Below the pieces are notes generated by a model. The model had not been told where the DNA came from. It searched no databases and was given only the letters and a program-made list of their open reading frames with translations. A stretch of 64,000 nt of DNA from Alphaproteobacteria bacterium (GTDB lineage: Bacteria; Pseudomonadota; Alphaproteobacteria; Rs-D84), in the NCBI GenBank assembly GCA_017451625.1, contig JAFTNY010000033.1:13800-77799 (forward strand), written 5' to 3'. Numbering within the stretch: position 1 is the first letter of the stretch; every line of letters starts with the position of its first letter. Position numbers and translations under genes: made by a program. Shown here in pieces: positions 39,445 to 41,709 of this stretch.

Positions 39445-41709
39445 ATGAAAAAACTGCTGACTTGTTTTTTCGCACTAATTGTTGTGGCACCTGCAGCAAT
39501 CGCTGCCGACGGTGCTATTTCGCGTGCCTTGCCGACATCTGACACGACGGCGGCCACAACAAATTCTGCGTCGCGGTCGACGGTGGCACGCACTGCCACA
39601 CGCACGCCCACAAATTCCACAGATGGTTCCTTGGCCGCCCCAAACGTTGTACGCAGTACTGTTTCACGTATTTTTAGCGGCGCATCCCCATCTGACACCG
39701 CCACCACAAATGCATCTGTGGCGCGCACAAATATAATCACACGCGCAGTATCAACAAATAAAAATTCGGACAATGTTGCACGTTCTAATCTGGATGCCGC
39801 GGTAAATACTGTCGGCCGCAACAGCCGCGTTTCATCTGCCAGTATCAACAGCAATCCGGCCGTACGTCGTGCGGGACTGACATTACGCCCCAGCACTGCC
39901 GAGGTTGGCGGCCGCGCCACCATTGGCGATGATAATGTTCAAACGGGTTCTAATATTGACGAAGTGGTTCGCGGCGTTCAATCGCGTGCCGCCACAACTG
40001 CCACGCGTGAAAGTATTGCCGATGCGACCGAACGTCTGGAACAAACCGCAACATTAAACAAATCGTGCCAGCAGCAGTATAATGACTGTATGGACCAGTT
40101 TTGCGCGGTAATCGATGCAAATCAGGGGCGTTGTTCGTGTTCGTCCAACCTGTCCAGATATACCAAGGTTGAAAACGCAGTCAAAGATGCAAACACCCAA
40201 TTGAACGAGGTTGCCCAGCGTATCCGTTATGTCGGACTGTCGGCTGATGAAATTCGCGCCATTATGAACGAGACCGAGGCCGAAGAGGCCCTGTCTGGTG
40301 CCGTCGACACATCTGAAACACGCAATATGTTGGCCGAAATCGAAGATTTAATTCGTGATCCTGTCTCGAACACGTCTTATTCGTCTGATACGTACAGTGG
40401 ATTGGATTTGGATTTGAATTTTTCATCTGAAACTGCGGATTTGTTCAGTCTGGATTTCTTGAACACCAACAGCACCAGCAGTTTTTCCAACCTGCGTGGT
40501 GCCGATTTGTATAATGCGGCGAAAAAGCGTTGCAACAGTGTCTTGACCCAGTGTAAAAACGCCGGTGCCACCGCCCAACAGATCACAGGTAATTATGATT
40601 TGGCGATTGACAAGGATTGCATCGCATACGAACAAGGGTTGACCAAGATGAACGAAACATTGGTGTCCAATGTTCGCAGTGCAAACCTGATGTTGCAAAA
40701 GGCACGTTTGGCGGTATTGCAAAATAAAAATCAATATGATGCCAAGGGCTGTATCGCGGCCCTGAATACGTGTATGACCGACGATATGGTCTGTGGCGAT
40801 GATTACTTTAAGTGTGTTGATCCGACCAAGCGGTATATTGATGAAAATGGCGAAGTTGTCTTGGGTCAGGATATTTCACTGATAACCGCATTTATGACCA
40901 GTTATAACAACGCAACAATTACCACTGAATTTGTCGAAGATGCATATAAAAACCAGAAAATGACACCCGACGAATGCAACAAGGCCCCCAGTCGTGGCAA
41001 TGACACAAAAATGGGTGGCAATGACGGGTCGTGTGTTGCGGCATATCTGATGCATAAAATTGGCACAAAACAGGCCGTCACCGACGAAGGGTTGTGTCGC
41101 GCCGTTCTGGACAAGTGCCAGCGTTATACATATGACACTAATGGCAAATATAAACAATGGAATGATGTTGTTGTAAATTATGTCCAGCGTGCAATGGTAA
41201 ATATTCGCGCCGCCCAGCAGCAGATTATATCAGATTATGCATCAACATGTATGGTTGATATTGCAACCTGTTATAACCAGCAGGTGACCCAAGTGAATGC
41301 ATGGTCATCCAGTGCCAGTATCGAGAGTATTCGCAACGTTATGCGTGGCGCGTGTCGTAATGTTGCGCTGACCTGTGCATATGCGGTATTTGACGCAGAC
41401 ACGACCAATGACGGATGCCCCAGCGGCACTAGCGGCCAAGAAACCTGTATCGACAACATTTCTGACATGTTCTATCAATCGCTGTTGTGTCCAGACAATT
41501 CAACGTATCAGACCCAGAAATACAGCGGCGAAGTTGGAAATGATACTGCTTATGTTAACGCACATTGTATGTGTAACAAGGGTTATACTGCATGGGGCAG
41601 TTCGTGTCTGGTAAATTGCCCAGAAAATTCTAAACGCAATAACTATGGTACCTGTGTCTGCAACAGTGGGTTGAAAATGGTTAATGGTACCTGCCAGTCA
41701 GCAAATTAG
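39445..41709 (+). CDS. Large secreted Cys-rich protein (754 aa) with N-terminal Thr/Ala/Arg/Ser-rich low-complexity region
   Basis: Signal peptide 'MKKLLTCFFALIVVAPAAIAA'; low-complexity region ~aa 25-170. Conserved 'CQQQYNDCMDQFC...RCSC' block and >40 Cys, with a C-terminal 'CPENS...GTCVCNSG' motif. It is paralogous to 48419..50548. Confidence 0.65.
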   Translation: MKKLLTCFFALIVVAPAAIAADGAISRALPTSDTTAATTNSASRSTVARTATRTPTNSTDGSLAAPNVVRSTVSRIFSGASPSDTATTNASVARTNIITRAVSTNKNSDNVARSNLDAAVNTVGRNSRVSSASINSNPAVRRAGLTLRPSTAEVGGRATIGDDNVQTGSNIDEVVRGVQSRAATTATRESIADATERLEQTATLNKSCQQQYNDCMDQFCAVIDANQGRCSCSSNLSRYTKVENAVKDANTQLNEVAQRIRYVGLSADEIRAIMNETEAEEALSGAVDTSETRNMLAEIEDLIRDPVSNTSYSSDTYSGLDLDLNFSSETADLFSLDFLNTNSTSSFSNLRGADLYNAAKKRCNSVLTQCKNAGATAQQITGNYDLAIDKDCIAYEQGLTKMNETLVSNVRSANLMLQKARLAVLQNKNQYDAKGCIAALNTCMTDDMVCGDDYFKCVDPTKRYIDENGEVVLGQDISLITAFMTSYNNATITTEFVEDAYKNQKMTPDECNKAPSRGNDTKMGGNDGSCVAAYLMHKIGTKQAVTDEGLCRAVLDKCQRYTYDTNGKYKQWNDVVVNYVQRAMVNIRAAQQQIISDYASTCMVDIATCYNQQVTQVNAWSSSASIESIRNVMRGACRNVALTCAYAVFDADTTNDGCPSGTSGQETCIDNISDMFYQSLLCPDNSTYQTQKYSGEVGNDTAYVNAHCMCNKGYTAWGSSCLVNCPENSKRNNYGTCVCNSGLKMVNGTCQSAN

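Follow-up and report, generated by a model that had tools for sequence, protein, structure and literature searches.

CysA, a cysteine-rich exported protein of reduced-genome gut Alphaproteobacteria and a candidate disulfide-stapled scaffold of the cell envelope

The stretch of DNA considered here, 64,000 nucleotides of contig JAFTNY010000033.1 (GenBank assembly GCA_017451625.1, positions 13,800 to 77,799; hereafter the window), comes from an alphaproteobacterium of the Rs-D84 lineage and encodes an exported, cysteine-rich protein of 754 amino acids (aa), which we name CysA and treat as the founding member of a so far unnamed family. Its open reading frame (ORF), at 39445..41709 on the forward strand, exactly as delimited in a first-pass annotation of this DNA, is a genuine, conserved gene of a gut alphaproteobacterium that is uncultured and has a reduced genome, since homologs, sequence clusters and genomic loci of the family are all abundant. 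As to function, CysA can be read, somewhat tentatively, as a helical scaffold of the envelope or the cell surface, exported through Sec and stapled by disulfides, that belongs to a family confined to reduced-genome gut Alphaproteobacteria. This reading is suggested, on the side of the protein, by a conserved signal peptide, the cysteine pattern, a helical core, a gradient of conservation along the chain and the repeat-bearing C-termini of relatives, and, on the side of the genome, by envelope-gene neighbours, a tandem arrangement with a paralog (CysB), further Cys-rich proteins in the window and the probably dependent lifestyle of the bacterium.

The CysA family and its three-part architecture

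A protein identical to CysA has been deposited as 'hypothetical protein IJX43_02995 [Alphaproteobacteria bacterium]', and the 120 homologs listed, among the 1129 returned by a word-indexed search (E<=1e-3), carry either no name or the name 'hypothetical protein'. An exhaustive HMMER search with residues 195-754 recovered 663 clusters at 50% identity (E<=1e-3), 456 of these with E<=1e-10, and a scan with a six-sequence core alignment located 531 loci of the family in the species representatives of GTDB. The best 80 of these 531 loci are nearly all from metagenome-assembled genomes (MAGs) labelled Candidatus Enterousia, Alphaproteobacteria or 'Rickettsiales bacterium', and their sources are the guts of ruminants, humans and other animals. 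Candidatus Enterousia belongs to the order Rs-D84, whose members are widespread in human and livestock guts and have never been cultured, with genomes mostly below 1 Mb that lack the tricarboxylic acid cycle, respiration and ordinary transporters (PMC12306168). The bacterium that carries CysA probably depends on other cells. An origin of the gene in a mobile element was considered and ruled out by normal GC content and by a chromosomal, housekeeping context in all lineages.

Three sources describe the protein itself: an alignment of 69 diverse members (A3), sharing 27-67% identity with the window protein and supplemented with the in-window paralog at 20%; mean regional identities among 119 close orthologs; and an AlphaFold2 (AF2) model built with the family alignment. 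The same three-part plan, of a signal peptide with a disordered region, a core and a variable C-terminus, is constant across A3, and the finer layout is constant as well: a signal peptide, an Arg-rich and Lys-poor region, a helical core opening with C-x6-C-x4-C-x9-C-x-C, and further C-x6-C pairs. Thus, the first-pass annotation had the outline right, as its exported Cys-rich protein, its disordered N-terminal region and its paralog in the window are all supported, while some of its details, on cysteines, glycosylation sites and transcription, need to be revised, as described below.

The conserved core is acidic (pI 4.7), with a mean identity of 81% among orthologs, and the AF2 model represents it as all-alpha, with long helices at residues 377-426 and 574-620 and with a predicted local distance difference test score (pLDDT) mostly of 85-96 (464 residues at 70 or above). 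More than 40 cysteines in recurring C-x-x-C and C-x-C spacings had been claimed for CysA. The actual number is 31, with 30 of them in the mature protein; C-x-x-C is not found even once, and C-x-C is found three times versus 1.2 expected, which is not significant. The spacing that does recur is C-x6-C, present eight times versus 1.2 expected, a count reached in none of 5000 shuffles. Eighteen core cysteines (positions 208, 215, 220, 230, 232, 363, 370, 392, 436, 443, 450, 457, 551, 558, 602, 609, 637 and 644) are invariant or are lost in at most 2 of the 69 sequences, and most of these fall into C-x6-C pairs on helices, one pair per two turns. In one family member C208 and C370 are both missing, and this joint loss suggests a 208-370 disulfide, so that the pairs may act as antiparallel helix-helix staples of the 208-370 and 215-363 type. 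The claimed abundance of N-x-S/T sequons dissolves on counting (15 versus 12.7 +/- 3.1 expected from composition, P = 0.26), and, with a number equal to the shuffle expectation, we have discarded the idea of their significance for N-glycosylation.

No known relative of this core has come to light. Neither Pfam (E<=0.01) nor NCBIfam holds a family for CysA or CysB, searches of PDB sequences with CysA as a single sequence and as a family profile returned nothing meaningful, and a Foldseek comparison of the CysA model with 350,542 PDB chains gave no match at E<=1e-3. Judging by the model, and as far as the PDB can tell, a new fold or family would be represented by the core.

CysA starts with the Sec-like signal peptide that had been claimed for it, here judged by reading the sequence and not by a predictor, in which a basic n-region precedes a hydrophobic core and an A-x-A site (predicted cleavage MKKLLTCFFALIVVAPAAIA/ADG), and the pattern is kept in orthologs (LPAFA/EVAP, for example). 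A lipoprotein was also considered and rejected, as there is no lipobox: Cys7 is preceded by L-L-T and is not conserved in the alignment. What follows, at residues 21-189 or so, is indeed of low complexity and rich in Thr, Ala, Arg and Ser, as described before, and it is strongly basic, with 18 Arg to a single Lys and a pI of 11.6. Its disorder is apparent from the pLDDT, which stays below 50 at residues 14-136 and 144-188, and loose V-[AS]-[SA]-R-[AT]-[AT] repeats run through it, the commonest Arg-Arg distance being 5. Across the 69 sequences, the signal peptide is likewise followed by 105-320 residues with 6-13% Arg and usually less than 3% Lys. One island stands out within this region. While residues 21-135 show a mean identity of only 48% among orthologs, residues 136-165 (NPAVRRAGLTLRPSTAEVGGRATIG...) reach 82%, a short helix is predicted by AF2 at residues 138-142, and distant members of the family carry related R-x-x-x-R-P-T strings. 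The island looks like a short linear interaction motif. Elsewhere in the window (10506-11807, forward strand), a 433-aa exported protein, free of Cys and without a match in Pfam, has an N-terminal half that is rich in Ala, Val, Ser, Pro and Arg and carries V-x-A-R-x-A strings like those of the disordered region of CysA.

The C-terminal module is the variable part, with a mean identity of 51% among orthologs. In the model, a single helix leads into small beta-hairpins knotted by Cys (C-x-C...C repeats), with strands at residues 686-752. Past the last core Cys, the tail measures 27-401 residues across A3, and in relatives the C-terminus is replaced or extended, in proteins of up to 2338 aa, by arrays of EGF-like repeats, ephrin-receptor-like Cys repeats or Listeria-Bacteroides (Flg_new) repeats. 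Pfam scans of 16 longer members detected only Flg_new repeats, in two C-terminal extensions (E 2e-11 to 4e-15), along with one sub-threshold match to FTA4 that was disregarded, and the C-terminus of the window CysA itself has no Pfam match. The EGF-like, ephrin-like and Flg_new domain types are known from cell-surface proteins.

Three further ORFs in the window are rich in Cys as well, located at 30519-31112 (forward strand), 17937-19157 (reverse strand) and 50578-51189 (reverse strand), with 15, 22 and 9 Cys, respectively. Each has a signal-peptide-like hydrophobic stretch, which is internal in the two longer ORFs, whose true starts may be downstream. The ORF at 50578-51189 matches the Pfam family Ephrin_rec_like (E 3e-5), and the Cys motifs of all three resemble the C-terminal repeats of CysA-family members. 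Taken together, the secreted Cys-rich proteins of the window suggest a disulfide-rich surface proteome.

Table 1. Positions in the window of CysA, its parts and the features discussed with it
Feature	Position	Strand	Description and basis
CysA gene	39445..41709	+	754-aa exported Cys-rich protein
Sec-type signal peptide, residues 1-20	39445..39504	+	MKKLLTCFFALIVVAPAAIA; predicted cleavage after AIA; read from the sequence
Basic Arg-rich, Lys-poor disordered region, residues 21-189	39505..40011	+	Composition, AF2
Conserved short motif in the disordered region, residues 136-165	39850..39939	+	NPAVRRAGLTLRPSTAEVGGRATIGDDNVQTGSN; ortholog identity
Acidic all-alpha conserved core, residues 190-655	40012..41409	+	Alignment A3, AF2
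Variable C-terminal module, residues 656-754	41410..41706	+	AF2 model, ortholog identity
Promoter-like site	39402..39430	+	ATGACT-17 nt-TATAAT, TG before the -10; consensus scan
Palindromic hairpin of 8 bp, 30 nt past the CysA stop	41739..41759		Poor T-run on the + strand
CysB, distant paralog of CysA	48356..50548	+	Longest ORF 730 aa; likely start at 48419, giving 709 aa
Five VirB6-like membrane paralogs (context only)	32772..34091	-
	34130..35404	+
	35406..36599	+
	36599..38086	+
	38130..39386	+

CysB and the genomic setting

CysB, which had been noted as a paralog at 48419..50548, is a true but distant one. It has the layout of CysA, with a signal peptide, an Arg-rich disordered region and a core with the same opening pattern of cysteines. 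The two proteins share 27% identity over the N-terminal 290 aa (BLASTP, E 4e-9), and the comparison of the CysB profile (24 sequences, the window copy and 23 orthologs) with that of the CysA family by hhalign gives a probability of 99.5% (E 9e-23). The match spans residues 202-430 of CysA and includes a sizeable insertion on the CysB side, and CysB has the first half of the core in common with CysA. The gene for CysB is directly upstream of CysA in most related genomes. Likewise, in a distant termite-gut MAG (L091), a CysB-like gene is directly upstream of a CysA-like gene, the two being part of a run of four genes of the family, which encode a weak member of 364 aa, the CysB-like (746 aa) and CysA-like (760 aa) proteins and a third paralog of 610 aa. 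As the tandem is kept in most relatives, including this one, CysB emerges as the conserved gene partner of CysA. In the window itself the pair is split by PBP1A-mraY-ftsW-murG-pagL.

CysA had been placed at the 3' end of an operon of membrane paralogs, with which it was thought to be probably co-transcribed. The distance given for it is correct, as CysA begins 58 bp past the stop of the fifth paralog, and yet gene order in 85 related loci, in which VirB6-like genes were scanned for within 10 kb using family profiles, does not support membership in such an operon. The usual order is PagL-CysB-CysA, followed by RNase T on the opposite strand, UvrD and the VirB6-like cluster, also on the opposite strand. 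A second common setting is OmpA-Skp-CysA-...-LptFG-LptD, seen in another Rs-D84 genome (L083). The head-to-tail order of the window recurs only in L027 and L046 among the fetched loci, and VirB6-like genes are found within 10 kb of CysA in 39 of the 85 loci and are not found in 44. Four distant members (L084, L091, L092 and L093) are located among housekeeping or envelope genes, for instance trigger factor and S1, TolC-MacAB, or rpoBC, with no VirB6-like gene within 10 kb. The gap of 58 bp contains a promoter-like site (Table 1), which is a consensus match only and which fits the independent position of the gene in relatives, and the hairpin past the stop is a possible weak terminator. With a gene order that is not conserved, a promoter-like site in the gap and a hairpin past the stop, co-transcription is doubtful, and we conclude that CysA is an independent gene rather than the tail end of a conserved operon.

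In L083, a secreted protein of 1087 aa with 42 Cys (13177-16440, reverse strand) adjoins the CysA homolog; it has C-x6-C-like motifs and an 'RRMPT' string, and it is not detected by the profiles of CysA or CysB.

The membrane paralogs themselves do belong to a type IV secretion system (T4SS) setting, as the first-pass annotation had sensed, with five VirB6-like paralogs, VirB8, VirB9/CagX and VirB10/TrbI all present in the window. The assignment of the paralogs comes from their fold. They have no match in Pfam (including TrbL/VirB6, PF04610), NCBIfam or PDB sequences, even as a profile, and a profile search for distant relatives found only close, unannotated homologs. Their alignment with five plasmid VirB6 proteins by hhalign is collinear and not significant (probability 11-38%), and the model of the paralog at 34130..35404 is of modest confidence (pLDDT 62.8, predicted template modelling score 0.55); by fold they resemble TrwI, a VirB6 whose structure has been solved in the R388 stalk. 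Five copies of VirB6 and genes scattered in 'islets' are characteristic of the rvh T4SS of Rickettsia, which has no VirB5 (PMC2653234). We have found no prior description in the literature of a T4SS in RF32/Rs-D84.

Several details of this system can be added. The fifth paralog (38130-39386) is without the N-terminal signal-like segment of its orthologs (e.g., MKRAMKFLSNLIMCAAIMFSAPTFA) and measures 418 aa versus 431 aa, so its start may be mis-set or its N-terminus lost. VirB8, VirB9 and VirB10 form an islet at 52438-57143 (reverse strand) with neither VirB11 nor VirD4 adjoining; VirB9 is 510 aa long, with a weak SPOR-like C-terminus, and VirB10, unusually long with its 818 aa, has a tail rich in Cys (...CEGNVAPDANGCCPGETYTDMGEQGFNCCPDTGGDCFPP). 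An ORF of 390 aa at 57212..58384 (reverse strand) was tried as a sixth membrane paralog and was found to be spurious: it does not align with the others, its composition is odd and it overlaps the tRNA-Trp at 57332-57405, so it is probably not a gene.

This setting brings up the first alternative to a general envelope scaffold, namely that CysA and CysB are accessories of an rvh-type T4SS, acting on or near the VirB6-like paralogs as a VirB5- or TraN-like adhesin or stalk partner that contacts a target cell. The five adjacent paralogs and the VirB8, VirB9 and VirB10 of the same window speak for it, as does the slot that stays unfilled in a system with five VirB6 and no VirB5. VirB5 is Sec-exported and helical, like CysA; the VirB10 of the window likewise has a Cys-rich C-terminal tail; the VirB6-like cluster is within reach of CysA in the 39 loci mentioned, and in the window, L027 and L046 CysA directly follows it. 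However, the profiles of CysA and CysB show no similarity to four plasmid VirB5 proteins (hhalign probability 0.5% and 0.2%, respectively), Pfam yields no match of CysA to TraN or VirB5, and VirB5 is not among the structural matches of CysA in the PDB fold search. The commonest arrangement, moreover, places RNase T and UvrD between CysA and a cluster on the opposite strand, the 44 loci and the four distant members are free of nearby VirB6-like genes, and what linkage is left could be plain synteny inside a single genus. The link of CysA to the VirB6-like cluster is thus weak, and a role as a T4SS accessory appears unlikely.

A possible role at the envelope

As an envelope or surface scaffold, CysA may work in the following way. 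The signal peptide would bring it to the periplasm, and the 18 invariant Cys would form about nine disulfides, mostly as twin C-x6-C staples between antiparallel helices, which would make a rigid, protease-resistant stalk of the acidic all-alpha core. The basic, Arg-rich N-terminus, along with the conserved motif, would tether the protein to an anionic component of the envelope or to a partner protein. The fast-evolving, Cys-knotted C-terminal module would be the exposed, binding end, in contact with the surfaces of host or partner cells, and it is this module that is seen to be shuffled for long repeat arrays in relatives. CysA probably acts together with CysB, its conserved gene neighbour across deep lineages, and would have a transcript of its own instead of being read as the end of the VirB6-like cluster. 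Envelope genes are found around the family in several lineages, including PBP1A, mraY, ftsW, murG and pagL in the window, OmpA, Skp, LptFG and LptD in L083, and TolC and MacAB in L092.

Some of the evidence weighs against this scheme. CysA is without a beta-barrel, a lipobox or a recognisable secretion signal of types 1, 5 or 9, and thus no device for crossing the outer membrane or for anchoring in it has been found, which is the main weakness of the scheme; CysA could stay in the periplasm. Its surface exposure, its tethering and its binding of a ligand are inferred, as are the formation and the connectivity of the disulfides. Searches of Pfam, NCBIfam and PDB, by sequence and by fold, have produced no ligand, enzyme motif or structural relative, and in genomes of less than 1 Mb the neighbourhood of envelope genes is weak evidence. 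As to a route across the outer membrane, pilin-like genes near the L083 homolog hint at one resembling a type II secretion system (T2SS).

These genes, at 2040-5907 (reverse strand) and 8020-8478 (forward strand) of L083, encode three large proteins and one small protein with type-IV-pilin-like N-termini (G/SMLVELLL and similar) and may represent a T2SS or a type IV pilus system. At 5109-9752 of L092, which is from the MAG of a distant 'Rickettsiales bacterium', TolC-like, MacA-like, ABC and FtsX-MacB-like genes with the orientation of the CysA homolog come directly before it, a possible link to export known from this single observation.

A second alternative would keep CysA inside the outer membrane, as a periplasmic or inner-leaflet protein that builds a disulfide-cross-linked lattice, like the chlamydial OmcB/OmcA complex, with the basic N-terminus binding peptidoglycan, lipopolysaccharide or phospholipid. 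A high Cys content, a Sec signal and the missing export device all agree with a lattice, as do the strongly basic disordered region (pI 11.6) and the neighbouring genes for the biogenesis of peptidoglycan and the outer membrane, and a reduced genome makes reinforcement of the envelope by protein plausible. What speaks against it is that all 18 core Cys can be paired within one molecule as staples between helices, leaving no obvious free Cys for cross-linking, that the absence of both C208 and C370 in one member suggests bonds inside the molecule, and that domain-shuffled C-terminal repeat arrays are typical of exposed binding modules; in addition, Pfam reveals no similarity to OmcB or DUF11. 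We consider such a lattice rather improbable. More speculative, and in our judgement quite doubtful, is the idea that CysA and CysB functionally substitute for the missing VirB5 of the rvh T4SS, as stapled helical proteins that would assemble on the VirB6 paralogs and present swappable, eukaryote-like, Cys-rich adhesion modules to the target cell. Least probable is a soluble effector or toxin that would reach the gut lumen, or the inside of a host or partner cell, since, in spite of the signal peptide, a disulfide-rich fold stable outside the cell, the eukaryote-like EGF or ephrin-receptor-like repeats of relatives and the type-IV-pilin-like, possibly T2SS-like genes near the L083 homolog, Pfam and PDB fold searches reveal in the core neither a catalytic or pore-forming signature nor a fold like that of a toxin, and a core 81% identical, encoded by a chromosomal, single-copy, order-wide gene, is more like a housekeeping structural component.

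Whatever their exact role, CysA and CysB are kept across a whole order in such small genomes and are therefore likely to matter for the lifestyle of these bacteria. The core, having no relative in Pfam, NCBIfam or PDB, would define a new domain with an unusual design of helices stapled by twin C-x6-C pairs, and the swappable C-terminal repeat arrays make CysA a candidate molecule for the recognition of hosts or partners. The Rickettsia-style, scattered T4SS with its five VirB6-like paralogs connects these gut bacteria with the way in which the rvh system has evolved beyond bacteria that are obligately intracellular. If the substitution for VirB5 were true, one would be dealing with a contact-dependent device for feeding or injection in an extracellular, reduced-genome gut relative of Rickettsiales.

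Comparison with known systems

A loose, TraN-like architecture had been proposed for CysA, and TraN indeed offers some parallels. As the mating-pair stabilisation protein of F-type T4SSs, TraN is located in the outer membrane, binds an outer-membrane protein of the recipient, and is encoded in a tra operon along with TraG, TraU, TraW, TraF, TraH and others. TraN is large and exported through Sec, its approximately 20 conserved Cys can all pair in intramolecular disulfides, and it combines a conserved body with a variable region believed to make contact with another cell (PMC9246713). CysA is likewise large and Sec-exported, has a conserved body and a variable part, and its 18 core Cys compare with the approximately 20 of TraN. 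The count of conserved cysteines is, however, the only similarity to persist, as the proposal fails on sequence, on fold and on the type of T4SS. CysA has no match to the TraN model of Pfam (PF06986), in line with zero families for it in either database. The fold of TraN is mostly beta-sheet, with a beta-sandwich tip (PMC9246713) on an extended N-terminal domain and with a mixed alpha/beta C-terminal domain, whereas the core of CysA is modelled as all-alpha. TraN is of the F-type, whereas the T4SS of the window is P-type or rvh-like (VirB6/8/9/10), no F-type tra genes being present in Pfam scans of about 45 larger ORFs of the window. Finally, no T4SS operon has CysA as a conserved member.

The case of VirB5 (TrwJ, TraC) is similar. 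VirB5, a three-helix bundle with a globular appendage, is Sec-exported and mainly helical, and its gene adjoins virB6 in canonical operons, a position comparable to that of CysA in the window. On the other hand, VirB5 is about 220-240 aa long and is without cysteine staples, and its conserved adjacency to virB6 has no equivalent in CysA, which is adjacent to a VirB6-like gene only in the window, L027 and L046.

The chlamydial protein OmcB, of 60 kDa, represents another reference point. It is a Sec-exported, Cys-rich envelope protein and adhesin of a reduced-genome bacterium, and its basic N-terminal segment has been implicated in the binding of anionic glycans. CysA shares with it the richness in Cys, the Sec export and the basic N-terminus, but OmcB is built of beta-rich DUF11 repeats, in contrast to the helical core of CysA. 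Modular surface proteins, such as the Giardia VSP-like proteins and those with internalin-family repeats, resemble the relatives of CysA in the repeat types of their C-terminal arrays, while they have no counterpart of the N-terminal disordered region followed by a helical core with 18 Cys.

Overall, CysA is of a familiar kind, that of the secreted, modular, Cys-rich envelope or surface proteins of host-associated bacteria. What is new is the conserved core and the Arg-rich tail, neither of which has a known counterpart, in a family that is large and wholly uncharacterised.

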